A stretch of 64,000 nt of DNA from Elusimicrobiota bacterium (GCA_036676805.1 JAKFCD010000056.1:2966-66965); one strand, 5' to 3'; counted from the stretch's first letter, positions 17,069 to 55,356 are shown. Program-made: numbers and translations. Notes: generated by a model not told the origin, from the sequence alone.

Positions 17069-17072
17069 GCTC

Positions 17073-19304: not shown

Positions 19305-20351
19305 CTACGCTGTTTTAGCAATCTCCTTCGTCGGTGCCTGCTGGTGAGAATCGAAGAAGATGGAGTCCTCAGGCCGGAATCTGGAGGCCTCGTCCAAATA
19401 GCTTTGAATAGACATGGGGCTAGAGTGTCCCATTTCAGTCTGGAGCTGACGGAAATTCCGGACCACCATCGCGCGGTGCATGGCGAAGGTCCCCCGGAGA
19501 TCATAAGGTTTTACATGCGGGACGCCCGCCGCGCCGCGGATCTTCGCGAACAGCCGTCCGGTCGGCTGGCAGAAGTATAAGCCGGTGACGGGATGGGGCT
19601 TGATCCGGTTTAGCAGGGCTTCGAACCGCGGGCCCAGGCTCTTGATGGAGAAGTAGCGTTTGTGAATCCTCTTCCCCCGTTTTTTGAGGGTCTGGAGCCA
19701 AATCTCCCCATTATCGCGTTCGACATTGTCTTTACTGAAGAGCAGCGCTTCTGTCGGACGCGCGCCGGTCAGAATCCGGAACTCAAGGAGGTCCTTTACC
19801 GCCCCGTAGGGCATGGCACATGTGAGCAGGCTCTCGATCTCGGGCTTTCGGAGCCAGACTTCCTGGCGGGACTCGTTCTTTAGCCCCTTAACCCCGAGAA
19901 GCGGATTCCGCTTGATCAGACTTAACTGGACCGCATAGTTGAACACGCGGCGTAGGCAATCGAACTCCTTGTCCACGGTGGAACTGACGCAGCGCCGCCG
20001 CGAGAACGAGAGAGTTCCGTAGAGTCGTCCGGTCTTGTAGTTCTCCCACATCTCCAGGTCGATATCGTGGAGATTGTGCTCGCCGAAGAAGTGTTTGAGC
20101 GCCTTGGCCGAGTCTTCCTCGCGCTCGTAGCTGTTTGATTTGAGGTTCGGCTTGGCGCAGCGCGCGAGATACTTCTCATCGACGAAGCCGGCGAATATGA
20201 CGGGGGTTTTGCCGTCGGGCAGATTTGATTCCTGGCGCTGGCCGCCTTCGAGAAACTTTGTCAGATCCGCCAATGGGACGACGCGCCGAATGTACCGGTT
20301 CTCGAATCGGTACTCGAAGCGTACAGCGTCTCCATGGCGATCAATTTTCAT
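19305..20351 (-). CDS. int: Tyrosine recombinase/integrase
   Basis: LTGARPTEAL (R), KTLK-like K region, YDLRGTF (HxxR variant), EMGHSS and SIQSYL (catalytic Y). Confidence 0.92.
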   Translation of the reverse strand: MKIDRHGDAVRFEYRFENRYIRRVVPLADLTKFLEGGQRQESNLPDGKTPVIFAGFVDEKYLARCAKPNLKSNSYEREEDSAKALKHFFGEHNLHDIDLEMWENYKTGRLYGTLSFSRRRCVSSTVDKEFDCLRRVFNYAVQLSLIKRNPLLGVKGLKNESRQEVWLRKPEIESLLTCAMPYGAVKDLLEFRILTGARPTEALLFSKDNVERDNGEIWLQTLKKRGKRIHKRYFSIKSLGPRFEALLNRIKPHPVTGLYFCQPTGRLFAKIRGAAGVPHVKPYDLRGTFAMHRAMVVRNFRQLQTEMGHSSPMSIQSYLDEASRFRPEDSIFFDSHQQAPTKEIAKTA

Positions 20352-20352
20352 G
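20339..20352 (-). promoter_or_regulatory. Shared motif copy E (CATGAAAATTGATC) overlapping the integrase start codon
   Basis: Minus strand GACATGAAAATTGATCGCC; its ATG is the int start (MKIDR). Confidence 0.55.
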
Positions 20353-20409
20353 TCTTATACCTACGATCCAGCTGCCGTTTTGTTTCATCTATTTTCGGAC
20401 GTATTCGAG

Positions 20410-20709
20410 CTAGAAGTGCCGCATCCTCGGCCGGCCGGAGATGCCGATTTTCAGCCTCTTGATGAGATGGTCTACTTCTTTGCGCTCAAAGAGGAGCTTC
20501 CCCCCGATCCTGCTGGGCCGGAGGCCAAGGCGCCTGTAGTTCCGAGAGAGCCAGAAATAGCTGTGATCGAGCCGCGCGGCAGTGCGGCGGAGGTTTAGAT
20601 AGTCGTCGTCGATAAGCGGATGATCCGCGGGCGCGGCGTCGTTTTGAATGAAAGGCAGAGCCCAGGGCTCCTTCCTCATGACTTGCGTCGATTCAGTGTC
20701 TGGCTGCAA
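20410..20709 (-). CDS. xis: Excisionase/HTH_17-like DNA-binding protein
   Basis: YLNLRRTAARL...RIGGKLLFERKEVD pattern; directly upstream of int; GGAGG SD. Confidence 0.75.
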   Translation of the reverse strand: MQPDTESTQVMRKEPWALPFIQNDAAPADHPLIDDDYLNLRRTAARLDHSYFWLSRNYRRLGLRPSRIGGKLLFERKEVDHLIKRLKIGISGRPRMRHF

Positions 20710-20728
20710 TAGATTCCCTCCGTGCCGT

Positions 20729-21409
20729 CTAATATTCGAAACGTTGCGGGATATAGACCCGCAGGCCGGTTTCGGCTTCGATCGTGATGCTCTGCGTCAC
20801 CTCCTGGCGTTGGACGTCCAGCTCCTTGACCGCTTCCTGAGTGAGTCCCTGGGTTGCCGAGGAGGCGATGGGGCTGACTCCGCTCATCTCTAAGGCGGAC
20901 TGGGTCCCGTTGACGAAGGAGCGCAGCACGGTGTTGGCGACCGCCGCGTCCTTGTGGGTCTCGACCTTCCCCTTGAGGCCGGCCGCGCCGTCGAGCGACA
21001 GGGCCATTCCCGTGAACTTCACCTCGTCGCCCTTCTCGAAGACGAGCGTGTGGAAGTTGACGAGCACGCGGTCGTGGCTCTTGAGAACCGCGACCGTGCC
21101 GATGGCGCGCGTGCCCGCCGGGATGACCACGCGCCTCTGATAGACCACGTCGCGCTCCACGGCGGCGATCGCGGGGGTCTCGACGTTGAAGCTGAAGATC
21201 GCGTTCTCCAGCCGGACCGGGAAGGTGAACCCGGTCGGAAGGAAGTAGTTGGTCTTCGTGGGCGTCTTCTGCGTGACGCCCTTGAATCCTTCGGGAGGTC
21301 CCGAAGTCTCCTTCTTCTCCCGGAACGCGCGGCGGACGACCGTCTCCTGGGCCGAGACGGGCATCGACGCGAGCAAGACCACCGCCAGCAGCTTAGGGAA
21401 GCAGGTCAT
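20729..21409 (-). CDS. VirB10/TrbI/TraM-like conjugal transfer protein
   Basis: LPTGFTFPVRLENAI, VVIPAGTRAIG, RVLVNFHTLVF and ITIEAETGLRVYI; N-terminal signal/anchor. Confidence 0.85.
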   Translation of the reverse strand: MTCFPKLLAVVLLASMPVSAQETVVRRAFREKKETSGPPEGFKGVTQKTPTKTNYFLPTGFTFPVRLENAIFSFNVETPAIAAVERDVVYQRRVVIPAGTRAIGTVAVLKSHDRVLVNFHTLVFEKGDEVKFTGMALSLDGAAGLKGKVETHKDAAVANTVLRSFVNGTQSALEMSGVSPIASSATQGLTQEAVKELDVQRQEVTQSITIEAETGLRVYIPQRFEY

Positions 21410-21797
21410 TGAAGGCGAAGTGGAAGTAAGCTTTGCGGTACACTTCGCGGGCCAGCGCGTCGCGGTACTCCTCGGGCTTGCTCAGGCGGGCCAGGGCGAC
21501 CGGATGCTCGAAGGCGAAGTCGAGCGCCGCGTTGATGATGTCCGAGGCGCTCAGCGCCGGCATCAGGCGCGGACGCTCGCGGTTATAGTCCTTCATCACG
21601 CGCTTAAGCTCGTCGACGTGCTCGTCGCGCAGCACGAACCGATCATGCCGGTTGGTGAAGATGCCCTCATAGCGCCGCTTGTAGTCGAAGCGGAACAAAG
21701 GGACGACGACCGGCTTGGCCTGTCCGCTGGGCGGCAAGGGCCTGAGCGCGGGCATGGGCGGAAGGTACGGCAACGGCGGCAGTGGTGCGTGGTTCAT
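21393..21797 (-). CDS. Hypothetical protein within the transfer operon
   Basis: Tightly packed between the VirB9-like and VirB10-like genes; Pro-rich N-terminus. Confidence 0.55.
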   Translation of the reverse strand: MNHAPLPPLPYLPPMPALRPLPPSGQAKPVVVPLFRFDYKRRYEGIFTNRHDRFVLRDEHVDELKRVMKDYNRERPRLMPALSASDIINAALDFAFEHPVALARLSKPEEYRDALAREVYRKAYFHFAFNDLLP

Positions 21798-21800
21798 GTT

Positions 21801-22622
21801 CTAGAACGGATAGGGGACGGCCAGCTCGACGATTCGTCCCTTCTCCTTATCCTCCTTGAGTGCGACATGGACGGCGGCCCCGGTCCGGGGCTTTTCGAAG
21901 ACGACAAAACCTTCCCGCGTGCGACCTGGCTCGACGAAGAGCCGGACGAAGGATTTCGAGCCGATCACCTCTTGGCCGGAGCGCAAGGCGAGCTCGCGCA
22001 CGAAGAAGTCCTCGCCGCCGCGATTAGTCACGGTAACCTTGAGGATGCAGCGTCCATCGGAGCGGCTCAAACCCCGCAGGCGCAGGACTATCGAGCCCTG
22101 GGCGGCGCTCGCGTTCAGAGAGTATTTCGCGGGGTCCCTCTCGTAGGTATCGCCCACTGAATCTAAAGTTTCAGGCGCGGGAGTCGCGGCTTGAGGCGGC
22201 GCGGGCGCCTCCGGCTTGACCGCGGCCGAACTTGCGGCCACTACCGCCGGATCGACCGGAGAGCCAACTCTTCGCGGTTTTACGTACGCCTTTTGCGCGG
22301 TGGGCTTCTCGACGGGTTTCTTGGGCGTGCTCAAAGACTCGACCCGGCTCAGGAGGGCGTTGGCCTCGATCGGCGTATACCTCTGACGCACGGCCTGGGC
22401 CACCAGTCCCCAGGTCTCGGCACCCGTCATGCCTGGACCTTTCACTGCCGAGGTCGATGCCTGCGTCGCCTCGAAGGCGCCCACGAAGCCTTCCAACCGC
22501 TGGTACTGCGTCCGCGCCAGGCGCTCCGCGCCTATAGGCAAGCTGAACGCGACCGCGAGGATCACGCTCGCCAGCACCAGCAGGAACGCCGGGGCGTTAT
22601 CAGCGCTTAAATACGCTCTCAT
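21801..22622 (-). CDS. VirB9/TraN-like protein (tentative)
   Basis: N-terminal TM segment, low-complexity linker and C-terminal beta-sandwich (ILKVTVTNRGGEDFFV); position in the operon. Confidence 0.45.
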   Translation of the reverse strand: MRAYLSADNAPAFLLVLASVILAVAFSLPIGAERLARTQYQRLEGFVGAFEATQASTSAVKGPGMTGAETWGLVAQAVRQRYTPIEANALLSRVESLSTPKKPVEKPTAQKAYVKPRRVGSPVDPAVVAASSAAVKPEAPAPPQAATPAPETLDSVGDTYERDPAKYSLNASAAQGSIVLRLRGLSRSDGRCILKVTVTNRGGEDFFVRELALRSGQEVIGSKSFVRLFVEPGRTREGFVVFEKPRTGAAVHVALKEDKEKGRIVELAVPYPF

Positions 22623-23250
22623 GGTAGTCCTGGACGAGGATGCCGTAGGGCGACTCCTGGGAGCGAGGGACTTTGAGGAGCACGATGTCGTGCTCGAAGA
22701 CCACCTCGCTGGCCGCCGCGTCGGGTTTGTAGGAGCCCACTTGGCGGTAGCCCTTCACCTTGCACTCGAAAACATCGGACGTGTCCCGAATGACGCGCAG
22801 CTCGGTCAGGAACAACGTCGTCTTGGTCTGGTTCGCCTTCAGGTTCTCGACCGTGTTCTCGCGCTTGAGGAGGTCGTTGGCCTTGGTTTGGAACTCGGGA
22901 GTCATCATCGTGAAGGCCAGGCGCAGGTCGGCGTCGTAGGTGTAGGCGTTGAGTTCGATGAAAAAGCGCTCGAAGAGCGCCAGGAAGTTGCGGACCTCGG
23001 CTTCCCCCACCGGCGGCTGACGGTCGATCCCGGACAGCGTGACCGACTGCCCATTGCCATCCACCTTGATGACGACGGGCGGCCGGCGCGACTGGACCCG
23101 CAGCAGGGCCAGCGCCAGAATCGCCACGGTGATCGCGAGCCACAGCGCGGTCCACAGAGCCTTATTGGCGCTCTCCAGACCGCCCCAGACCTCGTAATAG
23201 GCCGGACGGCCGAGCAGAAGCGTCTCTGACGCGGGAGTGTTGGTCGTCAA
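22600..23250 (-). CDS. VirB8/TrbF/TraK-like protein
   Basis: Single TM then PVVIKVDGNG, EAEVRNFLALF and LRLAFTMMTPE; TTGA overlap with the upstream gene. Confidence 0.75.
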   Translation of the reverse strand: MTTNTPASETLLLGRPAYYEVWGGLESANKALWTALWLAITVAILALALLRVQSRRPPVVIKVDGNGQSVTLSGIDRQPPVGEAEVRNFLALFERFFIELNAYTYDADLRLAFTMMTPEFQTKANDLLKRENTVENLKANQTKTTLFLTELRVIRDTSDVFECKVKGYRQVGSYKPDAAASEVVFEHDIVLLKVPRSQESPYGILVQDYHESVFKR

Positions 23251-24251
23251 GCGCCTTTACCTCTCGATGCCGTCGCAGGCTTGACGGGCTTGGCCGCCTC
23301 CGGCGTGGCCGGCTTGCGGCGGCCGAACATCGTCTCGTAGGTCCGGCTCATGGTCGCGGGAATCGGATGCTGGAAGTAGGGCTCCTTGCCCTTCCCATCG
23401 GCCTTGGCCTTGCGGTAGCCGTTGATCTCCTTGCTGAGCATGGTCGCCGCACCCATCTTGCGGGCGACGACCACGGTCTGGACCGCGCCCATCGCGGCCT
23501 CGCCGAAAGCGGCGATGTTCTCGCCGGACAGCAGGCGCGCCGTCAGGATCGGCGTGCCCAGGATCAGGATGAGGAAGGTCACGTTCACTGTCAGGACGCC
23601 GATGTAGTCGTCGGCCATCCCGGCCCCGGTCGAGCCGCTCATGGGGGCGAGGGTGAGCCACACGCGCACGGCCAAGCGCAGAAAGAAGCTCCAGAACGCC
23701 ACCTGGAAGGTGTTGACGAGCCAGCCGCGCGTCACCTGGAGGGTCTTTTCATTGACCGCGCAGGCGAGCGCCAACGGGCCGAACGCGTAGAGCAGGCTCA
23801 GAAAGCAGACCTGGAGCATGATGACGACCTCTCGCACGACCATCGTTAGGAGACTGCTCAGGAATAGGAGCATGCCTTGGATCGAGGCCACGTTCTTGAT
23901 GAGAATCATCAGCGTGGGGTAAGTGGAGTCGCTTCCCTTGAGGCTCTGCGTGAGGAAGTTCCCCCATTGCTGTTCGCTCAGGATGGCGAATGACATGACC
24001 TGGGAGAGCTTGAGGATGAAGCCGAATAGGCCGTTATATGCGATCAGGCACATGCACGCGACGAGCACGCGCGTCATCAAGCCGCTATAGCTCGGGAATT
24101 CTTTGCTCTGGAGCGAGCGGACGTTCATCTCGAGGATGGTGAAGGGGATGAGGAAGCCCAGCCCCGCCACGGCGAGCGTCTTGCTGACCGCGGCCAGGCC
24201 CGAGAGCTTCATCGGAATCTGGGTGATGTCGAGCAGTAGTCCCGTGTTCAC
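23247..24251 (-). CDS. VirB6/TrbL/TraJ-like polytopic membrane protein
   Basis: Multiple TM segments including LLYAFGPLALAC; follows the VirB5-like gene with a GTGA overlap. Confidence 0.7.
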   Translation of the reverse strand: MNTGLLLDITQIPMKLSGLAAVSKTLAVAGLGFLIPFTILEMNVRSLQSKEFPSYSGLMTRVLVACMCLIAYNGLFGFILKLSQVMSFAILSEQQWGNFLTQSLKGSDSTYPTLMILIKNVASIQGMLLFLSSLLTMVVREVVIMLQVCFLSLLYAFGPLALACAVNEKTLQVTRGWLVNTFQVAFWSFFLRLAVRVWLTLAPMSGSTGAGMADDYIGVLTVNVTFLILILGTPILTARLLSGENIAAFGEAAMGAVQTVVVARKMGAATMLSKEINGYRKAKADGKGKEPYFQHPIPATMSRTYETMFGRRKPATPEAAKPVKPATASRGKGA

Positions 24252-24949
24252 TTGTCTCCTCTCTGTTCGGTCTGCCGGGGCAAGGCCCCGGGCGCGCGCT
24301 TCTCGACGCTCTTGCGGATGCTCTCGATAAGCCGCTGCTCGCCCTGCTGCTGGCGCACCTCGGTCGCAAGCCGCATGGACGAGATCTCGATGAGCCGGAG
24401 GTTGTCCTCATGGAGCTGAGTCATCATCTGGATCTGCAGACCCGCGGCCTTGGCCGAGAGGTTCGCGGCGTCCTTGGGCGAGAGACCGTTCGCCTGCTTG
24501 GCGATCTGGATGCCGACCTTGCGTCCCGAAATCACGTCGGCGAGCCCGTCGCCGGCGTAGCGCATGTTGTTGGCGATGCTACGGTCGACGCTTCCGAAGA
24601 AGCGGTCTACCTTGGTATCGGTGTTGTAGGTGTTGATGAAGTCTCGGTCCACGTTGCTCTTGAGCTCGTCGCCCATAAGCTCGGCGGTGTTCTTGAGCAT
24701 GTCCCCGACGTTGTGAAGGAGTCCCTTGCCGCTGTTGAGGCGCTGGAATTCCTTGTAGTAGCGCACGGAGGCGTCGTAGTTCTGCTTCATCATCCTGATC
24801 TGCTCGATGACCTTGAGCTTCATGAAGGCCTGGTAGGCCTTCTGCTCGGCATACTGAAGGCCGGACATGGCCGTGTCGAAGATGAGCGCGTGCGCCGGCT
24901 GCCCCCACAAGAGCAGCAGCGCCGCCGCCAAGGCGAGCTTGTTCCTCAC
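24248..24949 (-). CDS. VirB5/TrbJ-like secreted helical protein
   Basis: Signal peptide, helical Q-rich content, located between VirB4 and VirB6. Confidence 0.55.
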   Translation of the reverse strand: MRNKLALAAALLLLWGQPAHALIFDTAMSGLQYAEQKAYQAFMKLKVIEQIRMMKQNYDASVRYYKEFQRLNSGKGLLHNVGDMLKNTAELMGDELKSNVDRDFINTYNTDTKVDRFFGSVDRSIANNMRYAGDGLADVISGRKVGIQIAKQANGLSPKDAANLSAKAAGLQIQMMTQLHEDNLRLIEISSMRLATEVRQQQGEQRLIESIRKSVEKRAPGALPRQTEQRGDK

Positions 24950-27384
24950 TTTCCCTCCGAGAGCTTGAGCAGGATGTCCGTCTCAGACAGGCCGAGATTC
25001 TCCGCGCGGACCTTTTCCTCGGTCACGTGGTCCTTGGCGTCGGTCGTGCAGATCCAGTAGTCGAGCGGGCAGGGCTCAACGCGGGCGACGACGGCGCGGC
25101 CTCCGAACTTCACGAACAGGTCGGAGAAGACGCGGGGCTTGGACTGCAGGAGCTTGACCGCCTCCACCTCGTTCTCGTTCAAGTCGAACTGAGACAGCAG
25201 CTCGTGGCCCTTGGCGAGCTTGAGGACGTACTTCACGTAGGAGTTGGCGATGATGGCGTTGGCCGCCTTCGTGTCGAGGAAGTCCTTGGGCGACTGCGAG
25301 ATTGAGAAGATCGCTCCGTTGAACTTGCGCGCCGTGCGGTAGAGGTTCTCGATGAGCTCCGAACCCACGTCGTCGTTGAAGAACTTCCAGCCCTCGTCGA
25401 TGGCGATGATCTTCTTCAAGCGTCGGTTCTGCAGCTTGGCCCATATGACCGAGCGGATGACGAAGAAGTACACGCCTTGCAGGTCGGGGTGGTTCTCGAG
25501 GTTCTGCAGGTCGAAGACGACGAGACGGTTCTTGAGGTCGAGCCGGCCCTTGCGGTCGAAGAGCCGGCCGTACATGCCCGTGGTCCACAGCTCCAAGGCG
25601 TCCGCGTAGGCCTTGGCTTTCGGACGCTCGCCCGATAGGCGCGAAAGCTCCCGGCGCACGTCCGAGAGCGTGACCTCCTCTTTGCCCGCGTAGGCCGCCT
25701 TGATGGCGGTCTCGAGGAAGGCCTTCTCTGTGGTGCTCACGCTCTCCCCGGCCTTAAGGCACATCCGCGAGATGAGCAGCGAGAGGTAGGCCACGGCGTC
25801 CCCGTCGAACTCCCCTTCCGGCGCGATCTCGAAGCGCGGCGGGAAGGGGTTGAAGCCGAACTTCTCCGACAGCTCCACCTCCAGGTACTCCCCGCCGAAG
25901 GCGCGGGCGAGCTTGCGGTAGGAGCCGCCCACGTCGATGACAACGACATGATTCTCCGGCGACTCGGCCAAGTAGGCGCTCAGGATGTAGTTGGTCGTGA
26001 AGCTCTTGCCCGAGCCCGTGGTCCCCAGGATGAGCCCATGCTTGGCGGGAAGGTCGTCGTCGAAGGGATCGAGGCCGACCAGCTCGCCCAGAGGGGTCTC
26101 GAAGAGCATCTTCTTCTGCCGGCTGCCCCGCCAGGAGCCTGACAACGGCAGGAAACCCGAAAGGGCGTCGGTCTGGATGTAGAACTGCCGATTATTGAGC
26201 CGCGCGTGGCCCGGCACCGAGCCCAGGAAGAGGCGGAAGTGGTTCATATCGTCTGAAAGTCCTTCGGCCGAGGCGAAGTCATGGAAGGAGCCGAGCACCG
26301 CCGCGGTCTTGTCGCGCAAGGTCTGGGGGTCTTCCGCGCGCACGAGCACCGAGAGTGAGAAGCGGAACAGCCGCTGGGCCGTGGCGCGGATCTCGGTCAG
26401 CAGCTCGTCGAGCTCCTGGTGCTTGCGCTCGGCCTCGTAGTTCTTGCTCATGGCCGAGAAGGCGAGCGTGCGGGTAATGTTGTTCTTGAGCTTGAGGCTT
26501 GAGACCGCCTTCTCCGCGTCGAGCGTGTGGACGGTGAGGTTCAGGTCGCAGTCCGGCCACAGGCTGTCGAGCAGACGCCAGGCGTAGCCCGGGTGCGCCG
26601 TCTCCGGGAGGCGCAGCAGGCTCACGCCGCGGTAGTAGGCGTCGCCCACGCGCACGTGGTCGAACTCCTCCCTCAGGGGCGTCGCCGCCGCCTGCTCGCG
26701 CAGCGTCCGCAGGGGTGAGACGCACGAGAGGGGCAGGCCTTCGGCCTTGGCCGGGTTTAAGTGCCGGTAGGCGAGGTCGAGCAGCTCCTGCGAGTCGAGT
26801 TTCCGGGATTTGAGGCCGAGGTTGTGCAAGCGCTCGGAGACGACCTGATCGAGCGCCGCGTGCTCCTTGCGCCGCAGTGCGTCGAACTCGGCCGTGACCT
26901 GGCGCATCGGGCGCTTGAAGCGCGGAATGATGGGCGAGACGGGCACGAGCCCATCCTTGGGATGGCTGGTCACGAAGAGAAGGCAGCGCCGCCGTTGGAG
27001 AAACTTACGCTCCAGCGCCTCGCACTTCTTCTCGATGACGAGGCGAGACAAAGCGTCAGCGTCCGGGTGCGCGTTCGACCCGCGGAAGGCCCGGATCGTC
27101 TCCGGGTCGCCCTTGCGGACCTGGACGACGAACTGGAGCGTCACGTCGGCCGGCAAAGCGTTGAGGAAGGCCCGCGCCTGAGTCTCGAAGAGGTCGGCGC
27201 GCGCCGGATCGGCCAGCCGCAGGCTGTCGAGCTCCAGCTCGTAGGCCGAGGACATGGAGAGGTCCACTCCGATCAGGACGCCGTCGCCCAGGCTCCAGAG
27301 GTTGAGGAACTGGGGCAGCGGCGGGACCTTGGGCCCGCGAATCGCCTGGCGCAGCGTGGTCAGTCCCATTTCAACTCGGTTCAA
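24946..27384 (-). CDS. virB4: VirB4-family conjugation ATPase
   Basis: GTTGSGKSF Walker A, IAIDEGW Walker B, RTARKFNG and ISQSPKDF. Confidence 0.95.
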   Translation of the reverse strand: MNRVEMGLTTLRQAIRGPKVPPLPQFLNLWSLGDGVLIGVDLSMSSAYELELDSLRLADPARADLFETQARAFLNALPADVTLQFVVQVRKGDPETIRAFRGSNAHPDADALSRLVIEKKCEALERKFLQRRRCLLFVTSHPKDGLVPVSPIIPRFKRPMRQVTAEFDALRRKEHAALDQVVSERLHNLGLKSRKLDSQELLDLAYRHLNPAKAEGLPLSCVSPLRTLREQAAATPLREEFDHVRVGDAYYRGVSLLRLPETAHPGYAWRLLDSLWPDCDLNLTVHTLDAEKAVSSLKLKNNITRTLAFSAMSKNYEAERKHQELDELLTEIRATAQRLFRFSLSVLVRAEDPQTLRDKTAAVLGSFHDFASAEGLSDDMNHFRLFLGSVPGHARLNNRQFYIQTDALSGFLPLSGSWRGSRQKKMLFETPLGELVGLDPFDDDLPAKHGLILGTTGSGKSFTTNYILSAYLAESPENHVVVIDVGGSYRKLARAFGGEYLEVELSEKFGFNPFPPRFEIAPEGEFDGDAVAYLSLLISRMCLKAGESVSTTEKAFLETAIKAAYAGKEEVTLSDVRRELSRLSGERPKAKAYADALELWTTGMYGRLFDRKGRLDLKNRLVVFDLQNLENHPDLQGVYFFVIRSVIWAKLQNRRLKKIIAIDEGWKFFNDDVGSELIENLYRTARKFNGAIFSISQSPKDFLDTKAANAIIANSYVKYVLKLAKGHELLSQFDLNENEVEAVKLLQSKPRVFSDLFVKFGGRAVVARVEPCPLDYWICTTDAKDHVTEEKVRAENLGLSETDILLKLSEGK

Positions 27385-27674: not shown

Positions 27675-27696
27675 ATCGGAAGCTCCGGAGTCATAA

Positions 27697-46670: not shown

Positions 46671-46731
46671 CATATTTTCCGTACCGGCGAATTTTGGTAG
46701 ACTCATAACTTCACGGAGGTTCGATACAAAC

Positions 46732-46980: not shown

Positions 46981-48450
46981 ATGAACCCAACGATGCGTCG
47001 TTACGCGCTTCTCGCATTCGCGGTATTGGGCGTGATTTTGGTTTACTCATGGCATGGCATGACCCATTCTAAGACCCTCCGAGTCGGCTTTCCCCTCATT
47101 TTTCTCCGGCAAGACCCGACGATCCTGGACCCGCGAAATACGGATACGGTCTATGAGTATTATCTGCTCGAGAATCTTGCCGTCGGCTTGGTCCGCGACT
47201 CGAGCCAGTCGCCGTCGGGCTACGGGCCCGGCATCGCGGAGTCTTGGGAGCGTCTCTCACCGACGCGTTGGGTATTCCATTTGCGGCCGGGACTGGCCTG
47301 GAGCGACGGCACCCCTATCGACCCCGCGCTGATCGCGAGTCATGTCGTGTCGTTGAGCCGGGAGAAACATAGGCACATCGTCTACCTGAAGAAGCTTCTG
47401 AGCGCGACGGTGGAGAACCGCGATCTCGTCCTCGAGTTCTCCGCGCCCACCAACGACGGCCTGATCCATGAGCTGAGCCTGGCGGACTCGGCGTTGCTCC
47501 ATCCCGACAATCTTACGAAGGACTGGCTCGTGACCTCGGGCCCTTTCTCGGTCGAATCATACGAACCAGGAAAGAGTCTTCACTTGAAGAAGAATCCCCA
47601 CTATCGGGTTCAAGACGGTTACCCGGACCAAGTGGAGCTAGTGGGCTTCACAAAGGATACCACCGGAAACTTCTTCGACACCGTCGACATCGACCTGCTG
47701 AAGATACCTCTCCCTTCTTTTCGAGGATCGAATCCGAAGGTCTTAGCCAAGGCGCCTCAGGTGCTTCGCGGCTACCCCACGTCGATTTACCAGCTGTACT
47801 TCAATACGGAGAAATCCCTTTGGCGCGACGTCGAGGCGCGTCGGGAATTGGCCTTCATCACCGAGCAGGCGCTGAAGGGGTTCACATATGCCGATCTCGC
47901 CCGTGAGCGCCAATTGATCCCGAAAGGCTATTCAGGCCGTCTCGATGACGGCGCGGTGCCGAGTGGCTCATCGCGGGGTCTCCTCGCCGGCAAACGCTTG
48001 AAAATCTACCTTTGGCCTTCATTCTCCGACGGCCCTCAGATCGCCGCGGCCCTCAAAGCAGGTTTCGAGAAGGCGGGAGTCCCGCTGGACATCGGGTACG
48101 CGTGGGAGCTGCCCGAGATGGCGCCCGATTCCGACCTCCAGATGACATTATTCGCGGGCAATCAGCGCGAAGCGATGGGAAGCTGGCAGTTCATGTTCTC
48201 CCCGGATCATGGGCACCTCCGCCACTTCCGTCCGAAAGTGGAGCCTTTTTTCGACCGGATCATGGCCTCCGACGACAAGGAGGACCGCGAGACCAACATC
48301 CGCGCCCTCCACAGTCACGTGTTGAAGGAAGCCTACGCCGTGCCCCTTTTCATCGAGGCGGACATCCTTGTGGCAAGCGATCAGGTCGACCTTTCACGTC
48401 TAAATCCCTTCGACTTGCGTCTGCGGTTCTATGAAGTCCAGTGGAAGTAG
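46981..48450 (+). CDS. ABC-type family-5 (oligopeptide) substrate-binding protein, without permease or ATPase genes
   Basis: PGIAESWERLSPTRWVFHLRPGLAWSDGTPI, VTSGPFSVESYEPG, LKKNPHY and EAYAVPLF. Confidence 0.88.
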   Translation: MNPTMRRYALLAFAVLGVILVYSWHGMTHSKTLRVGFPLIFLRQDPTILDPRNTDTVYEYYLLENLAVGLVRDSSQSPSGYGPGIAESWERLSPTRWVFHLRPGLAWSDGTPIDPALIASHVVSLSREKHRHIVYLKKLLSATVENRDLVLEFSAPTNDGLIHELSLADSALLHPDNLTKDWLVTSGPFSVESYEPGKSLHLKKNPHYRVQDGYPDQVELVGFTKDTTGNFFDTVDIDLLKIPLPSFRGSNPKVLAKAPQVLRGYPTSIYQLYFNTEKSLWRDVEARRELAFITEQALKGFTYADLARERQLIPKGYSGRLDDGAVPSGSSRGLLAGKRLKIYLWPSFSDGPQIAAALKAGFEKAGVPLDIGYAWELPEMAPDSDLQMTLFAGNQREAMGSWQFMFSPDHGHLRHFRPKVEPFFDRIMASDDKEDRETNIRALHSHVLKEAYAVPLFIEADILVASDQVDLSRLNPFDLRLRFYEVQWK

Positions 48451-49387
48451 CCGCTGGTCCCTCGACCTGAATCTCATCCGCAAGGGCGGCGCGCAGATAA
48501 AGTCCCCGCTGACCGGCCGCACTGAGCAGTTGAATTGGTCGGTCATCAAAGTTCCCGCGAAACTCCTTCCGATCTCCGTGGTCGAATGCCGTCTCGTAGG
48601 CATGGGCCGAACAGTCTACGGCTACGGCGACAGCCTGCTCTATACGGACTCCCTCACCCAAGCCTTCGCCGAGGCCTGGGAACGCCTATGGTTCGACCTT
48701 CATTGCGACGACCCAAACGGAGTCAGCGGCCCGCTTCGCAGTAGCAACGGCTTCGCCTGCGGAGCAACGCCACAAGAGGCCGAGGCGGCCGCACGATCCG
48801 AACTGATCGAGCGCGCCGTATATTTGACGGCCTGGAACGCGCGCAATGGCTGGGTCCCGATCACATCGACCGGACTCTTGAACCGGGTTCTACTCGCGTC
48901 CCTCGATGTCCTCGGCTGGGAAATCGCGTTATTCCGCCTGTCAGAGGAAACATTGGGCGATGTGATTTGCGGGCTGAGCACCCGAAAAACCGGCGGAGTG
49001 CTCTTCGACTGCGTCTATCAGCGGCAAGGCGTCGCTATGGGGCAGGCCCAATCGAAGGTGCTGCGTTCGCTTCTCAGATCCGCCGTCGTCCTTGGCAATT
49101 CCCCCGCCTCTTATGCGCCGCTTCCCGAGCGCGGCGGCCCTTCCTCGCATAGAGACTTCTATATGGAGCCGGCTAACCTCGTCGCCTTCGATTTCTTGAA
49201 GGAGCGGCTATCGATGGCCGAACGAGTTAAACTAGACGGCTGCGATCATACCGAGACCCGTATCCTTGTCGATATCGAAGGATTCCCCTGCGTCGCGGCG
49301 GCGACGAATCCACATTGGCCCGTTCTGAGCTGGGGCAAAGAATCGCTTAAAGAGGGAGGCAATCCATGGCCGCATCCTCTCGCCTGA
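48431..49387 (+). CDS. Compact YcaO-family protein
   Basis: AFAEAWER, SSNGFACG...EAEAAARSELIER (ATP-binding motifs) and a Pro-rich C-terminus NPWPHPLA. Confidence 0.85.
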   Translation: MKSSGSSRWSLDLNLIRKGGAQIKSPLTGRTEQLNWSVIKVPAKLLPISVVECRLVGMGRTVYGYGDSLLYTDSLTQAFAEAWERLWFDLHCDDPNGVSGPLRSSNGFACGATPQEAEAAARSELIERAVYLTAWNARNGWVPITSTGLLNRVLLASLDVLGWEIALFRLSEETLGDVICGLSTRKTGGVLFDCVYQRQGVAMGQAQSKVLRSLLRSAVVLGNSPASYAPLPERGGPSSHRDFYMEPANLVAFDFLKERLSMAERVKLDGCDHTETRILVDIEGFPCVAAATNPHWPVLSWGKESLKEGGNPWPHPLA

Positions 49388-51411
49388 CTCTCGTCTCGCC
49401 GCTGCGCGTCTGGCTCATTTTCAACGCGTTGTTCGTCGCCTTGGTCGCCAGCAGCTGGTATACCCTTTATCGTCAAGCCCAGGCCGACAACCAGCGCCTT
49501 GTCGCCAGCCAAACCATCACTTTGACCAAATCTCGCTTCGACGACATCAAGAACCGCCGGTTCCGGGATTTCGTCGAAGGCGTCGGCCGAGAGTTCTCGG
49601 ACCTCCATGTCCGGCTAAGCATCGCCGAAGAGACATACCAATTCGGCAAACTCCCCTCTCCGGGACACTGCAGCGACCTGGTCTACCCGCTCGGAGGTCG
49701 CGGCGCGGCGAGCGAGGCCCGCATCACGATGTGCCGCCCGTTCCGGTTCTCGAGCGCTCCGATCTTGGCCGTACTTCTCGTCTATCTCCTGATTTCAGGC
49801 CTGTCCCTCGTATTCGTCAGGCGGCTGGAGCGCCGCACGACCGCCGCGCTCGTCGAATTCCTGCGGGCCTCGGGCGTGGAGATCGATTCGGGTCGAGACC
49901 TTATCGGCATCATGGCGGACATGCGCGACATTCGTATTCGGCTCGATCAGGCCCAGGCGCAGGAACGCCAATTGATCGACACCCGCGCCCGCGCCGAACT
50001 GGCCGAGCAGGTGGCGCACGATATCCGGTCTCCGCTCACCGCCCTGGAGGCCACGGCCGGCGACATGGACTCGATGCCTGAGAAGAAGCGTCTTCAGATC
50101 CGAAGCGCCCTTTCCCGCATCCGCGATATCGCTAACGGCCTTCTCGATCGACGGAGAGCCGACATAGGGGAAAGCGGCTCTACAGTAAAAAGGGCGGATT
50201 CCTCCCCACAGCTGCTGTCCAGCTTGATCGAACCCATCATCTCCGAGAAACGCCTGGCGCTAGGACCCGACTCAGGCATCGAGGTCATTTCTCCCGATGC
50301 GGCCGGCTCCTACGGGCTCTTCGTCCTGGTCGATCCAGTGGAGTTCAAGCGGGCGCTCTCGAATCTTATCAACAACGCCTTGGAAGCTCTGGACGGAAAC
50401 GCGGGAAAGGTGCGCGTAACCGTCTCCAAGTGTGACAGCCAAATTCTCGTCGCCGTGAATGACGACGGCAAGGGCATGCCGCCGGACGTGCTCGCGAAGC
50501 TCGGACAGCGCGGCGCCACCTTCGGCAAGGCCGGCGGCTCCGGGCTGGGGCTCCATCATGCCCGGGCCAGCGCCAAGGCCTGGGGTGGACGCTTGGACAT
50601 CGCCTCGGAGGTCGGCGAGGGGACGACCGTGACTTTGGCTCTTCCCGCGGCCTCCGCGCCTGTTTGGTTCGTTCCTGAGGTCGCGACGGCTCGAAGCGGC
50701 CTCGTCGTGATTCTAGATGACGACGAGGGCATCCATCAGGTCTGGCGCGATCGTCTGAACTCCCTGGGTGCTGATGGACAAACCGTCGAAGTACGCGGCT
50801 TTTTCACGCCGCAGGACCTTCGGGGGTGGGTCAAGGCGAACCCCCTTGACGCTTCGCGCGCGCTCTATCTCCTGGACCACGACCTGGCAGGCTTCACGGA
50901 CACTGGTCTAAGCCTTGCTTCGGAACTCAGTCTTGAACGGCACGCGATTCTTGTTACGGGACGGCATGAAGACGCTAAAGTCCTGGAAGAATGCCGAATG
51001 CTTGGCATCCGCATGCTCCCAAAAGAGTTGGCCCCGCTGGTCCCCATCCGAGTGTCTGCTTCCGCTCCGACCAACGCCTCCGCGACTAGGCTGCTTGACG
51101 CCGTGTTGATTGACGACGACCCGCTGACCCGAATGACCTGGGAGAATGCGGCTGCCGAATCTGGGAAGGAGTTGCGCACCTTTTCTTCCCCAGCGGAGTT
51201 TATGCGCGAATATGGAGAGATCGACCGGCGGACGCCGATATACATGGATGTGAATCTGTCCACGGGGACGGACGGGGCCGCGGAGTCGCTGTGGGTTCAC
51301 TCTCTCGGGTTCAGCGAAATATACCTCGCGTCGGGGCATCCGCCTGAGAGATTCGCGAACCTTAAGCACCTACGGGCAGTGGTCGGCAAGGAACCGCCCT
51401 GGAACGCATGA
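49366..51411 (+). CDS. Membrane hybrid histidine kinase with two C-terminal receiver domains
   Basis: Two TM segments around a short periplasmic domain; QVAHDIRSPL, NLINNALEA, DDGKGM and GSGLGL; REC1 (ILDDD, LLDHDL) and REC2 (IDDD, YMDVNL). Confidence 0.92.
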   Translation: MAASSRLTLVSPLRVWLIFNALFVALVASSWYTLYRQAQADNQRLVASQTITLTKSRFDDIKNRRFRDFVEGVGREFSDLHVRLSIAEETYQFGKLPSPGHCSDLVYPLGGRGAASEARITMCRPFRFSSAPILAVLLVYLLISGLSLVFVRRLERRTTAALVEFLRASGVEIDSGRDLIGIMADMRDIRIRLDQAQAQERQLIDTRARAELAEQVAHDIRSPLTALEATAGDMDSMPEKKRLQIRSALSRIRDIANGLLDRRRADIGESGSTVKRADSSPQLLSSLIEPIISEKRLALGPDSGIEVISPDAAGSYGLFVLVDPVEFKRALSNLINNALEALDGNAGKVRVTVSKCDSQILVAVNDDGKGMPPDVLAKLGQRGATFGKAGGSGLGLHHARASAKAWGGRLDIASEVGEGTTVTLALPAASAPVWFVPEVATARSGLVVILDDDEGIHQVWRDRLNSLGADGQTVEVRGFFTPQDLRGWVKANPLDASRALYLLDHDLAGFTDTGLSLASELSLERHAILVTGRHEDAKVLEECRMLGIRMLPKELAPLVPIRVSASAPTNASATRLLDAVLIDDDPLTRMTWENAAAESGKELRTFSSPAEFMREYGEIDRRTPIYMDVNLSTGTDGAAESLWVHSLGFSEIYLASGHPPERFANLKHLRAVVGKEPPWNA

Positions 51412-51430
51412 ACCTATCCCGCGCTTTCAT

Positions 51431-51970
51431 ATGAACCGGGCCCCTGCGCTCTATCACATCGTTCCCGATGATCTAGTCGGGGATACGCTATACCCCCTGA
51501 ATCGCCTCGCAGAACTCCATCCCAGGGTCGCCTCGGAGCATGCCCGGAAATACACAGGCCGCGAGCGCCTGATGCAAGTTAGGCTGCCGATACTGGATTG
51601 CCTGTGGAACGACGTACTGCACTTGGCCCCGCTCCATCCGTCGATTACCAAGGCGGCGCTGCTTGCCTCGGGCTTCCAGGTCAGCCCGCGACGTTTCTTC
51701 GTGATCTCGCCGGAATTGCTTAATCCCCGGCACACGGTGCATTTCAAGCATTCCAGGGACACGCACGGGGTATATGATTTCCTGGCCTCGGACTTTTCAG
51801 CGTTTGAACCGGAGTCATACGAGGAACTTGAGCATGTTCCGGCGGAGCAGTCCGCTTACTTCCTGCGCATGAAAGCAACCGGAGAAAAGCCGCTCCTATG
51901 GGCAAGAACACCTCATGTATTCTATCTTGGCGATCTTCCCATAAACAACCTGCCGCGCATGGAGTGGTGA
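51431..51970 (+). CDS. Conserved-looking hypothetical protein
   Basis: Coherent ORF (LYHIVP...LYPLNRL...LPILDCLWNDVLHLAPLHP) 19 nt after the kinase. Confidence 0.6.
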   Translation: MNRAPALYHIVPDDLVGDTLYPLNRLAELHPRVASEHARKYTGRERLMQVRLPILDCLWNDVLHLAPLHPSITKAALLASGFQVSPRRFFVISPELLNPRHTVHFKHSRDTHGVYDFLASDFSAFEPESYEELEHVPAEQSAYFLRMKATGEKPLLWARTPHVFYLGDLPINNLPRMEW

Positions 51971-51975
51971 GACCG

Positions 51976-52746
51976 ATGAAGAAGCGCACCTCACGATCTG
52001 CCGCTCTCCTATTCGATCACTGCTACACGACCGACCGCGATCATAAGTTTCTCAAGCGACTCGCCAGAGCAGGTTTCACCCTTGACTCTTCGGTCGTCGA
52101 GCATCCGGGCCGGCATGTCTGCCGTTTCATTCTATTCTCGTCTCCTCAGCTAAAAACGCGCCATTACCTGGAATTCATCTCCAAACCAGTCCGTCAAGGC
52201 GTCAAACCGGGTCTCTCTTTCAGATGTGCCGACAGGCTTGAAGATCGATTCAAGGCGATTAAGCGTGACCGCGTCCTGAAACCGACTTTCGAGCACCGCA
52301 ACTACAATTGGAAGAAAACGGGACAGGGAGTTCACGCGCCCGGCTGGAACTTCGTTCACTTTCGCCGCAAAATCGCGGCCGTGGAAGTGTGGCTGACCGA
52401 ATACGAGCGGACGGGCGGAAAGAAGCGTCAGGTTAAATCACGACTATGGCACGATAACGGCGCCCTCGGCATCATCGGACTCGTCTTCGAAGCGACGGCA
52501 TCTGGCCGCCGCTATTTCGAGAGAATCCTCGGGAGAAGGATTGATGGATCTCTTCGGCTGCCTTGCGGGACACAATTGATCTTGGAGCCTGCAGCCAGAA
52601 CAAGGTTTCGCGGCGTCCTCATCAAAACCTCCAACTTCAGGAGATTCTGCGCGCGGGCGAAGCCCGACGAGATTTCGTCCCACGGAGGCCGCATGACCGC
52701 GGTGATTAAGAATCCGTCGGGCTCCTGGGATATCTTGGCCGTCTGA
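51976..52746 (+). CDS. VOC/glyoxalase-like (Glyoxalase_3-type) protein
   Basis: LLFDHCY, GFTL...VEHPGRHVCRFILF and HYLEFI; start ATG 51976. Confidence 0.6.
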   Translation: MKKRTSRSAALLFDHCYTTDRDHKFLKRLARAGFTLDSSVVEHPGRHVCRFILFSSPQLKTRHYLEFISKPVRQGVKPGLSFRCADRLEDRFKAIKRDRVLKPTFEHRNYNWKKTGQGVHAPGWNFVHFRRKIAAVEVWLTEYERTGGKKRQVKSRLWHDNGALGIIGLVFEATASGRRYFERILGRRIDGSLRLPCGTQLILEPAARTRFRGVLIKTSNFRRFCARAKPDEISSHGGRMTAVIKNPSGSWDILAV

Positions 52747-53464: not shown

Positions 53465-53486
53465 AACAGCATGAAAATTGATCACT
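53465..53486 (+). promoter_or_regulatory. Shared motif copy B
   Basis: AACAGCATGAAAATTGATCACT, 43 nt upstream of ATG 53530. Confidence 0.7.
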
Positions 53487-53529
53487 GGATGGCAACGCTG
53501 CGATTCCGCGGCGACAAGAGAGGCCATCC

Positions 53530-53949
53530 ATGCCGAACGACTCCCCCTCCCAGGAGGGCGAGATACGCCGCCGCATCCTGATAGTTGAAGACGACGCCCT
53601 GATGCGAGTTTTCTATGAGCGCCTCTTCAAAAGCCACGCGCACGACCTGGACTATCACTTAGAGGGGAGCGCTGAGGGCGCGCTGGATTACCTGCGAGGG
53701 GCCAGCGTTGACGCGATCATCACGGACTGGGATCTACCGAGCGTCAATGGGATCTACTTATTGAAGGCTCTGCGTTCCCATCCATCCACCAAATCTCTGC
53801 CCGTCGTGATGGTAAGCGGGCGCACCGGTCCCGGCTATATGGACATCGCCCTCAAGAACGGGGCCAGCGACTACTTCTCCAAGCCTTTCGAGGTCACGGC
53901 CTTTCTCGATCGCTTGAGGTGCCTTCTCCGCCGACCCGGCGACCCCTAG
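53530..53949 (+). CDS. Single-domain response regulator (receiver only)
   Basis: LIVEDD, IITDWDLPSVNG, VMVSG and DYFSKPF. Confidence 0.92.
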   Translation: MPNDSPSQEGEIRRRILIVEDDALMRVFYERLFKSHAHDLDYHLEGSAEGALDYLRGASVDAIITDWDLPSVNGIYLLKALRSHPSTKSLPVVMVSGRTGPGYMDIALKNGASDYFSKPFEVTAFLDRLRCLLRRPGDP

Positions 53950-53953
53950 CCCA

Positions 53954-55264
53954 TTATGGCGCCAGTTCCCACTCCCCCCATTTCGCGCGCCTGAATAGCC
54001 CCCGATTCGCGGTGAGGATCGCGCTGACGGACGGCGGCTTGTAGCCCTTCGCCTTCGCCGCCGCGTACATTTCCTGGAGCGTCGCTGGGCCGTCCTTCTC
54101 GCGCAGGAACTCGACCAGGAAGTCCTTAAGGCTCTTCACGGCCCGCTCTTCCCATTCCGGCAGGCCGAAGATTCCGCCATGACGAGCCCGCACGAACTCC
54201 TCCTTATGGATGGCGAGCATCGTGTGGACGCTGACCGGGTTTACGGGCGCACGGTGAGGATAGAGCTCATCTATTTTCGCGGCGATCTTCTCGTGGTGCG
54301 CGGGCTTGCCGATCGCGGCCAGCGCCGCATGCGCCATAGAGTGAAGGCTGTGGGCGTTGAAGTAAGACCAACTCCGCAGTCCGACCGCGCCGTTTTCCTC
54401 GATGCCAAGCTCACGTGAGAGCTCAAAGCACCGGCGGAGGAATCCTGGCGTCGTTTCGATGAGCATCTTTTTTCGGAGCCAGGCTCCGAGTTCGTCGAGA
54501 GCCATCGGCCGACCTAGGTTCAGGAGCGCGGTCTTGGTGAGGTCCATAATCTGATCGTGGCGATATTTGATCGAGGCGCTCTCGTAGCACACATCATCCA
54601 GACCGATAGTGACCAGGAATTCGGGTTTGGATTCAGAGACCCGGCAGAGAAAAGCGAAGGCCAAGCCCGCCGACTCCTTTCCGCGGCAAAGAACGGAGGC
54701 GGTGTCCTTCCACTCATGGATTCCGGCCATGCCCTGGCGCGCGGCGAGAAGCTTGAGGTAAATCGAACGGAGCGCGTGCTTGAACTCCTCGGATTCAGGC
54801 TTAAGCAGCCGTCTTAAATCAGCTGTTCCCCGCTCAATGTCACTTTGGACAGTACGATTGGCGAGATTCAAAGCCCTTGAGATTCCAGCACGATCCATAG
54901 GATGCCCGTCCCAAAGGCCGTAAGCTTTTTCGAGGACGGCGCGGCAACGAAACTCTAGCCGCCCCAACAACTCGCAGATGCGATCGGGCAATTGAGCGGG
55001 GTCTGCATCCCCCAGGATTCCGGGGGCGAAGTCTCCTGCAATGGCCAGAAGCAGCGCCTGCCTGGCGCGACGGATTTGAAAGGGACCAAGCGCGAGACTC
55101 TCTAACGGAGCGACTGCCAAGTCATTGACGGTCCGCAATCCCTTCGCGGCGAGCGCCTTCAGTAAGAGGCGCTGAAGAGGCAGGTGATCCAGAGATTTTT
55201 CCGCCACGCGCGCGGCCTCGGCATCAGTTAAAGAACGCCTGAGAATGGTCGCTTCCGATTCCAT
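53954..55264 (-). CDS. Multi-domain DNA/RNAP-binding protein: alphaCTD-like + sigma70 region-4-like + HARE-HTH/wHTH
   Basis: LDHLPL...ALAAKGLRTVNDL; RAVLEKAYGLWDGHPMDRAGISRALNL; AALAAIGKPAHHEKIAAKI...IFGLPEW. Confidence 0.7.
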   Translation of the reverse strand: MESEATILRRSLTDAEAARVAEKSLDHLPLQRLLLKALAAKGLRTVNDLAVAPLESLALGPFQIRRARQALLLAIAGDFAPGILGDADPAQLPDRICELLGRLEFRCRAVLEKAYGLWDGHPMDRAGISRALNLANRTVQSDIERGTADLRRLLKPESEEFKHALRSIYLKLLAARQGMAGIHEWKDTASVLCRGKESAGLAFAFLCRVSESKPEFLVTIGLDDVCYESASIKYRHDQIMDLTKTALLNLGRPMALDELGAWLRKKMLIETTPGFLRRCFELSRELGIEENGAVGLRSWSYFNAHSLHSMAHAALAAIGKPAHHEKIAAKIDELYPHRAPVNPVSVHTMLAIHKEEFVRARHGGIFGLPEWEERAVKSLKDFLVEFLREKDGPATLQEMYAAAKAKGYKPPSVSAILTANRGLFRRAKWGEWELAP

Positions 55265-55339
55265 GTGTCTGAATGTGCGGCGTTAGGCGAGGATAATCCG
55301 ATTTCGGCCGGCAGTCAAGACTGGCGGTCGAGAATCCAG

Positions 55340-55356
55340 CAGCATAAAAATTGATC
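55340..55356 (+). promoter_or_regulatory. Shared motif copy C
   Basis: CAGCATAAAAATTGATC(GCC), 53 nt upstream of ATG 55410. Confidence 0.65.

Follow-up and report, generated by a model that had tools for sequence, protein, structure and literature searches.

A five-copy motif in an Elusimicrobiota conjugative element and its probable recognition by a compact, divergent sigma-54 factor

What is the role of a 14-nt motif, CATRAAAATTGATC, that occurs five times in a 64-kb stretch of DNA from an Elusimicrobiota bacterium (64,000 nt, GCA_036676805.1, JAKFCD010000056.1:2966-66965; hereafter the window), each time pointing in the direction of the gene behind it? The window has a GC content of 70-75%, with a lower-GC insert (~58-65%) that spans roughly 10-12 kb to 58 kb and carries transfer genes, a tyrosine integrase and a sigma-54 paralogue of its own. 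An initial annotation of the window had proposed that the five copies join integrase, transfer, peptide and receiver genes into one regulon, and had left the choice between four element-encoded factors (a variant sigma-54, a bacterial enhancer-binding protein (bEBP), a regulator encoded at 36978 and an 'alphaCTD/sigma4 protein'). This idea proves largely right and can be sharpened to a single factor, the variant sigma-54, aided by the adjacent bEBP: the motif appears to be a promoter element linking the transfer genes, the radical-SAM/peptide genes and both receiver genes, while the part of the claim that made the integrase copy an integrase promoter is not supported. On the computational evidence we consider it highly probable that four of the five copies act as promoters of the -24/-12 (sigma-54) class, that the sigma factor encoded on the element (38012-39061) reads them, and that the neighbouring bEBP, a protein with receiver (REC) and AAA+ domains, switches them on. 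This reading is based on the sigma-54 geometry of the sites (NGCAY, a 5-nt A-rich spacer, TTGNT) and on their conserved positions at the flanks of the regulator cassette; the variant sigma-54 was singled out because of the -24/-12 layout, the continuity with canonical promoters in relatives, and the co-variation of RpoN-box residues with promoter bases.

A motif with sigma-54 promoter geometry

The five exact copies lie at 20339-20352 (-), 37937-37950 (-), 40709-40722 (+), 53470-53483 (+) and 55343-55356 (+), precisely where they had been annotated, against an expectation of 0.00 in dinucleotide shuffles. There is no further match within the window at up to two mismatches, and the region 1-11.7 kb is free of copies, as had been observed initially. 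The copies at 40.7 and 53.5 kb do share 22 identical nt (AACAGCATGAAAATTGATCACT), and all five are co-oriented with their respective downstream gene; the copy at the integrase gene (int) deviates in that its ATG serves as the start codon of int. When the flanks are aligned, the conserved core grows to (A/C)AC(A/T)GCAT(G/A)AAAATTGATC(A/G)C, with a G preceding CAT in four copies (GCATR...) and gaCATG... instead in the int copy.

Canonical sigma-54 (RpoN) promoters have the consensus YTGGCACG-N4-TTGCW and are activated by bEBPs; their GG and GC dinucleotides, like the arginines of the RpoN box, are treated as near-invariant. The motif—N-G-C-A-T, five A-rich bases, T-T-G-A-T—has exactly this geometry (TGGCAC-N5-TTGCW). 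The four copies other than that at int read (A/T)GCAT-N5-TTGAT, i.e., the -24 GG is changed to AG or TG and the -12 GC to GA. The window sites therefore lack the GG and GC one helical turn apart that characterize a sigma-54 promoter, though spacing and flanking bases match, and no canonical TGGCAY-N5-TTGCW is present in the window at up to one mismatch. They are best called derived variants rather than canonical sigma-54 promoters, since relatives of the same family carry the canonical form, TGGCAT-AAAAA-TTGCT. Three other explanations of the repeat were rejected: TTGATC as a sigma-70 -35 box (no -10 at 16-18 nt, by eye), a miniature inverted-repeat transposable element or a repetitive extragenic palindrome-like repeat (the shared stretch is only 22 nt), and a coding role of every copy (where CATA occurs, as it does in one copy and in many relatives, the ATG is gone).

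The putative reader of these sites is a compact sigma-54 paralogue of 349 aa (38012-39061, minus strand). Genes in the window were called by GC content at third codon positions (GC3), and domains were assigned by Pfam and NCBIfam searches. The only Pfam match of the paralogue is Sigma54_DBD (PF04552, E 4.9e-14), the C-terminal DNA-binding domain that characterizes the sigma-54 family, and the Pfam AID and CBD models give no match; a PDB search with a profile of 73 family members matches Aquifex aeolicus sigmaN (5ui5) over residues 202-346 (E 4e-16). With the AlphaFold2 model (pLDDT 79.9, pTM 0.76), the top 28 Foldseek matches are all sigma-54 chains, in alignments of up to ~425 columns at modest TM scores (0.39-0.45), and the N-terminus (KLARLLELPE...RVRELE) looks by eye like the end of region I. 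From this model we take the protein to be, probably, a complete sigma-54 in compact form. It has SLRSIAQYR as its RpoN box, as opposed to the canonical ARRTVAKYR, with a Leu at the first Arg (the equivalent of Escherichia coli R455).

The bEBP (39257..40615, minus strand) consists of a REC domain, an AAA+ domain with an intact GAFTGA and a Fis-like helix-turn-helix (HTH) tail. Together with the sigma gene and a small open reading frame (ORF) of 69 aa it forms one minus-strand regulator operon, in which the small ORF (39058..39267, minus strand; motif L.HD[IV]..KC..L..AA.L) is translationally coupled between the other two. This ORF, which was absent from the gene list of the initial annotation, is conserved in 25 cassettes with an invariant His in an H-box-like helix, and is a candidate stand-alone histidine phosphotransfer protein; phosphorelay parts in the window further include a hybrid histidine kinase (HisKA, HATPase_c, REC) and the REC domain of the bEBP itself. 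A conserved AT-rich block (40616-40650) lies beside the bEBP start, with TAGAAT on the bEBP strand as a sigma-70-type -10. The regulators could be made constitutively, because this sigma-70-like -10 stands just before the bEBP ATG, and the regulator operon of the window is probably not under a sigma-54-type promoter of its own, in contrast with 27 distant cassettes in which a cognate promoter precedes the sigma gene.

The window sigma belongs to a family of 330-390-aa sigma-54s with 277 matches, all source-named ones being from Elusimicrobiota, and 267 representative clusters match it end-to-end at E<=1e-30. Among the 79 fetched genome loci that we analysed (80+ related loci in total; most sequences are contigs of metagenomes or of metagenome-assembled genomes (MAGs), and several MAGs hold 2-3 paralogues), sigma and bEBP genes are adjacent in 59, often with a hybrid kinase nearby. 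Transfer genes accompany the cassette only in close relatives of the window; other cassettes flank biosynthetic operons (ATP-grasp with 62-63-aa peptides, aminotransferase/TauD/KAS III, radical SAM, FAD enzymes).

A scan of these loci with NGCAY-N5-TTGNW finds textbook TGGCAT(A/T)AAAATTGCTC in distant members (40-48% identity), GGCAT...TTGAT or AGCAT...TTGCT in intermediate ones, and (A/T/C)GCAT...TTGAT in the window clade, so that the motif grades into canonical TGGCAT-AAAAA-TTGCT across the 80+ related Elusimicrobiota loci. A relaxed scan yields 130 sites versus ~13 in shuffles, with the consensus Y-GGCAT-AAAAA-TTG(C/A)TC, in which unconstrained positions (Y before GG, T and C after TTGN) are still conserved. 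Their placement is recurrent: 27 loci have a site 48-198 nt upstream of the sigma gene and co-oriented with it, 19 have one just beyond the start of the divergent bEBP gene, and 14 sites lie shortly downstream of the sigma stop. According to gene calls for representative loci, sites are found 12-150 nt upstream of operon starts; these calls and positions relative to the sigma gene replaced distances to all ORFs of at least 100 aa, which were too noisy in high-GC DNA. Some promoters end 12-13 nt before the called start codon (L080, 8341-8367; L081, 5687-5714 and 8397-8423), and such transcripts would be leaderless or near-leaderless if the gene calls are right.

The same comparison bears on readings in which the motif is no core promoter. 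An operator for a conventional regulator (the bEBP HTH, the 242-aa protein at 36978 or a 436-aa protein) might be suggested by the partial palindrome in the motif (ATnAAnnTTnAT) and by the several uncharacterised proteins nearby. This we find very improbable, as the copies are strictly co-oriented with the downstream genes, the bipartite conservation at fixed spacing agrees with the canonical sigma-54 promoters seen in relatives, cassettes without u242 and u436 still have the motif, and bEBP sites normally lie at least 70 nt upstream of the promoter and not at -24/-12. The 436-aa protein, of unknown function, is encoded at 53954-55264 (minus strand), divergently from the promoter of the second receiver gene; it has a very weak sigma region-4-like match (NCBIfam SigC, E 0.008) and may be the 'alphaCTD/sigma4 protein' named above.

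The initial annotation had itself offered a site for integration host factor (IHF) or an arm-type site of the integrase as the alternative. The IHF core consensus is WATCAANNNNTTR, and the reverse complement of the motif (GATCAATTTTCATG) does contain ATCAA, a part of that core; however, the motif fails the W and TTR positions of the consensus, the corresponding element of the relatives is AGCAA (TTGCT) and not ATCAA, none of the copies is located at a border of the element, and the search for such borders gave no att repeats of the tRNA-Ser (11703-11794). Both forms of this alternative are rejected, at a probability close to nil, because many cassettes of relatives with neither integrase nor type IV secretion genes in the fetched flanks keep the motif, reading TTGCT.

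Co-variation of the RpoN box with the -24 dinucleotide

In a search that left the dinucleotide free, the -24 bases follow the two RpoN-box positions (455/456 equivalents) of the adjacent sigma. Sigmas with both arginines (RR) have GG at 91/91 sites and those with RQ have GC at 9/9; LR goes with TG (7) or AG (5), CR with AG (4) or GG (2), AR with CG (1) or AG (1), and SR with AG (1). The Trp variants (WR) among metagenome relatives were counted separately and have TG at 4/4 sites. Where the first Arg is present, the first -24 position is G in 104 cases and another base in 5, which look like chance hits; where it is replaced, G occurs in 3 cases and another base in 25 (Fisher p 2.5e-19, from counts that are not phylogenetically independent). 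The first Arg was lost in two groups of genome loci, as R->C (L008-L010, L055) and as R->L/S/A (window, L001-L007), with W, T and V among closer metagenome relatives, and in a neighbour-joining tree L026, which has both Arg and GG, separates the two Arg-less clades. A second, independent case is provided by five members with LSRQS, the R456Q equivalent (L042 (two copies), L052, L056, L077 and L018): a change of the second G was predicted beforehand, and all nine of their sites, which flank the sigma gene, read TGCCAT-AAAAA-TTGCTC. This tracking of both Arg positions gives strong indirect support for recognition via the RpoN box, and the unusual bases of the window motif appear to match changes in the DNA-reading residues of its sigma, as in a natural rewiring of sigma-54 promoter recognition.

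The co-variation also bears on a second possibility, namely that these are sigma-54-class promoters read by the chromosomal sigma-54 of the host, the element's protein being redundant or otherwise employed. The layout of the motif fits this too, and an ICE-borne rpoN copy using ordinary promoters is known, rpoN2 of the Mesorhizobium loti symbiosis integrative and conjugative element (ICE) (PMC3538637). Host recognition is nevertheless improbable: both invariant dinucleotides are altered in the window sites, the canonical form is missing from the window, as noted above, and from one locus to the next the -24 dinucleotide follows the RpoN box of the neighbouring sigma, even where one MAG contains different dialects (RBG_16_66_12, H52-bin097_1, GFS_5282, UBA9634, SO_2016_GW1_47).

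Several points weigh against recognition of the four sites by the element's own sigma and bEBP. The co-variation counts, being non-independent, perhaps reflect ~3-5 independent residue changes, and faulty binning could have placed paralogues together in a MAG. That the first Arg contacts the first G is inferred from the adjacency of this pair to an engineered R456/second-G result described below. For the C-to-A change at -12, correlation is best with protein columns in the HTH (window positions 254 and 259); there are exceptions, and these columns only hint at the residue behind the change. An upstream activator sequence was found neither among k-mers shared by the four upstream regions nor by footprinting of the bEBP-target intergenic region, a search that yielded only the sigma-70-like -10 of the bEBP operon and an extended -24 flank (GTGCWACWGCAT). 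Finally, the similarity of the 69-aa protein to known phosphotransfer domains is weak (HisKA matches in 4/16 members; ChpT, E 0.5).

Compared with canonical sigma-54 systems, the window shares the promoter spacing, a sigma-54 fold with RpoN box and extra-long helix (ELH)-HTH, and an adjacent GAFTGA AAA+ activator, and its distant relatives have TGGCAT-N5-TTGCT; it departs from them in the altered GG (AG/TG) and GC (GA), a conserved A-run spacer, a sigma of only 349 aa and the Leu in place of the first RpoN-box Arg. A similar exchange has been engineered in E. coli, where sigma-54 R456H/L/Y were paired with GA/GT/GC at the -24 GG (PMC12096077, NAR 2025); according to that study no non-Arg residue is known at R456 in nature, and it asks why nature never diversified this contact. 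The Elusimicrobiota pairs likewise combine a single RpoN-box Arg substitution with a single base change in the -24 GG, and the natural RQ cassettes (TGCCAT, GC) hit the very base position retargeted by the engineered R456 variants. Unlike the latter, they are natural, concern both Arg positions, and come with a dedicated bEBP in mobile or biosynthetic loci, the change in the window being at the R455 equivalent and the first G. The loci suggest that nature did diversify the RpoN-box/-24 contact, at both arginines and with a simple residue-to-base correspondence; in the literature searched there was no description of a natural RpoN-box/-24 rewiring or of the compact Elusimicrobiota sigma-54 family.

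Sets of sigma-54 paralogues are described for Cereibacter (Rhodobacter) sphaeroides, whose RpoN1-4, according to PMC11999139 and PMC3162934 (and Poggio et al. 2006 as cited in PMC11999139), have cognate bEBPs and their own gene sets, with discrimination at -11 and through activator contacts. As appears to hold for the Elusimicrobiota, several paralogues coexist per cell, each with its own activator and promoter discrimination, but C. sphaeroides keeps GG/GC, whereas in the Elusimicrobiota the -24/-12 dinucleotides themselves differ and the RpoN box co-varies. The M. loti element ICEMlSymR7A, which carries rpoN2/nifA (PMC3538637), is likewise an ICE equipped with a sigma-54 and a bEBP; these two act on cargo genes (nif/fix) at canonical promoters, whereas the window dialect is altered and also heads a transfer operon. 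Extracytoplasmic function (ECF) sigma families resemble the Elusimicrobiota cassettes in their many paralogous sigma/promoter pairs with private specificity and in the frequent autoregulation of the sigma (cf. the 27 distant loci), although they belong to the sigma-70 family and work with anti-sigma control and no ATPase activator, as opposed to the putatively phosphorelay-driven bEBP of the window family.

Taken across the family, we lean, if only slightly, towards a broader proposal: that Elusimicrobiota harbour a radiation of compact sigma-54 cassettes (sigma and bEBP, with or without the H-box protein) in which the R455 equivalent has changed to L, S, A, C, W, T or V and the R456 equivalent to Q, with promoters shifting in step from GG to TG, AG, CG or GC. 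Such natural, mutually orthogonal dialects would keep conjugative-element and peptide/biosynthetic regulons private within one cell, and the window dialect would couple peptide production, possibly sensed via an SBP_bac_5 protein and the hybrid kinase, to conjugative transfer. If this is confirmed, the cassettes would supply orthogonal expression parts that are gated by an activator and ready for use, natural data on how a sigma/promoter code evolves, and a rule predicting the regulons of mobile elements and peptide gene clusters in uncultured Elusimicrobiota.

Predicted promoters and their targets

P(rSAM), AACAGCATGAAAATTGATCACT (40704..40725, plus strand), has AGCAT as its -24-like and TTGAT as its -12-like element and is divergent from the bEBP gene; its predicted +1 (~40732) lies 28 nt ahead of the radical-SAM (rSAM) ATG at 40760, and a syntenic site exists just past the bEBP start in 19 related loci. 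The same 22 nt make up P(REC1) (53465..53486, plus strand; predicted +1 ~53493), which precedes a REC-only gene with its ATG at 53530; L012 likewise has a REC-only gene behind a cognate site. A second REC-only gene (ATG 55410) follows P(REC2), AGCAGCATAAAAATTGATCGCC (55338..55359, plus strand; predicted +1 ~55366). P(tra), CAACTGCATGAAAATTGATCCC (37934..37955, minus strand), located 60 nt past the stop of the sigma gene with a predicted +1 at ~37927, heads a conserved leader of ~215 nt and the minus-strand transfer block, and has syntenic sites in L001-L004, L007, L055, L148, L206 and L207. The predicted +1 positions, ~12 nt past the -12 element, would give three genes 5' untranslated regions of 28-44 nt and the transfer operon a leader of 221 nt.

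Behind P(rSAM) the putative target operon or operons (40760..52746, plus strand) encode a B12-radical SAM protein, a 49-aa ORF, MFS, TPR, SBP_bac_5 and YcaO-like proteins, the hybrid histidine kinase (49366-51411) and two unknown genes, and this radical-SAM operon layout is repeated in L206 and L207, there with 46-aa peptide genes. Small ORFs directly 3' of the B12-radical SAM gene (window, 42811-42960 (+), 49 aa; L206, 5888-6250 (-), and L207, 6109-6249 (-), 46 aa) are candidate precursor peptides. The two REC-only response regulators, identified by gene call and domain search, occupy 53530..53949 and 55410..55817 (both plus strand).

With these parts a relay can be proposed. The three regulators would be made constitutively from the housekeeping-type -10; the hybrid kinase, possibly partnered with the SBP_bac_5 protein, would start the relay, and phosphate would pass via the small H-box protein to the receiver of the bEBP, completing a His-Asp-His-Asp relay. 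Phosphorylated bEBP would then open closed complexes at the four promoters, using its GAFTGA loop and ATP, and thereby turn on the radical-SAM/peptide/export/sensor operon, the two REC-only proteins and the ~18-kb transfer operon that ends in int. The REC-only proteins are likely phosphate sinks that would provide feedback, and the altered -24/-12 bases would keep the regulon private, insulated from other sigma-54 paralogues of the same cell. Since the regulated operon itself contains the SBP_bac_5 and kinase genes, one can conceive of a positive loop based on peptide sensing. To our knowledge, a conjugation operon under an element-encoded sigma-54 and a phosphorelay would be an unusual case.

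The same region has two strong matches to the 2'-dG-II purine-class riboswitch aptamer, at 46569-46639 (+) and 53305-53375 (-), with scores of 83.8 and 77.3 bits (gathering score, 60). The first precedes the SBP_bac_5/YcaO-like/hybrid-kinase genes, and the second, which is divergent from the REC1 promoter, a gene for a 156-aa protein (52755-53225). Their position upstream of the genes suggests that the relay-feeding kinase may be expressed under the control of a nucleoside-type ligand.

The integrase copy and the transfer block

The fifth copy covers the int start codon (gaCATGAAAATTGATC, encoding M K I D; 20339..20352, minus strand) and lacks the G of GCA. Its ATG is the true start codon, since integrase homologues down to ~40% identity share this N-terminus (MK[IV]x[RK]xGD...), and a promoter at this copy would start transcription ~22 nt inside the gene. 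The copy is kept in an 88%-identical relative (L083) and lost in a 73%-identical one (ATGAAAATCGAAC) through ATT>ATC and GAT>GAA. The view that it serves as the int promoter is not supported, given the real start codon, the missing G and the disappearance of the DNA match in the 73%-identical homologue, and the int copy is in all probability no promoter. In the window and in three relatives (L083-L085), int closes a co-directional transfer operon. Its expression most likely comes from the 37937 promoter by read-through, from a local promoter, or from both, and the gene can still belong to the regulon, because the operon that it closes is headed by the 37937 promoter.

A function for the int copy is unlikely, though less so than the rival readings of the motif as a whole. 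A closed sigma-54-type complex on the start codon might hold back int expression, as a roadblock or occluder, for as long as the activator has not fired, or the site might give rise to an N-terminally truncated product: a match of 14/14 goes far beyond what chance would give, it involves three A/T-ending codons that are rare in this gene (GC3 of 0.74), it is retained in L083, and stable closed complexes are known for the sigma-54 holoenzyme (PMC5095919). On the other hand, the G missing here is found at 130/130 family sites, as demanded by the search pattern, and in the scan with a free dinucleotide it is still present in every Arg-456 locus; moreover, the match is lost in the 73%-identical relative through the two codon changes just mentioned, and the entire integrase family shares MK[IV]x[RK] as its N-terminus at the protein level.

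The transfer block (19305..37706, minus strand, ~18 kb) encodes u242, u83, u328, T4CP, fn3/CHU_C, PorV/PorQ-like, SSB, TraL, VirB4/TraG, VirB8-like and TrbI proteins, a 99-aa ORF and, as its last gene, the tyrosine integrase (19305-20351, minus strand). The combination of a tyrosine integrase (Phage_integrase) with type IV secretion genes (TraG P-loop/TraC, T4SS-DNA_transf/TraG-D_C and TrbI, with weak VirB8 and TraL) is as expected of an ICE. Pfam, NCBIfam and PDB sequence searches returned no relaxase family match among the window proteins and no identity for u242 and u328, which are candidates for a regulator or a relaxase. Terminator-like sites within the block are no more frequent than expected by chance.

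The conserved leader (37712..37925, minus strand, ~215 nt) separates P(tra) from the first transfer ORF and is 85-95% identical even between elements whose sigmas are only 64% identical. It is present in the window, L001-L004, L007, L008, L055, L112, L148 and L122, and absent from the Trp-variant elements L206 and L207; a metagenome scan with a 17-mer from the leader gave 120 loci, only 4 of them true homologues. RNAalifold predicts a multi-stem fold with 6 compensatory pairs (e.g., GGRGG/CCYCC and ATYCGGC/GCCGRA), and there is no Rfam match; conservation is too high for a strong covariation test. The leader could be a structured leader RNA or an origin of transfer (oriT).

Inside the transfer operon, 29336-33741 (minus strand) encodes a PorV/PorQ-family outer-membrane protein and an 842-aa fn3/FlgD-Ig/CHU_C protein with a type IX sorting signal, both conserved in related elements, which may form a surface adhesin module for mating. 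A defence-like group occupies 12205-19163, between the tRNA-Ser and the integrase, and comprises DUF5677, an AAA_13/SMC-like ATPase (774 aa), a CAP12/Pycsar-type TIR effector (E 1.4e-40) and an effector-associated-domain (EAD) protein. At the corresponding place beside int, relatives hold other cargo (GASH/DO-GTPase, PIN, PLD, SNF2).

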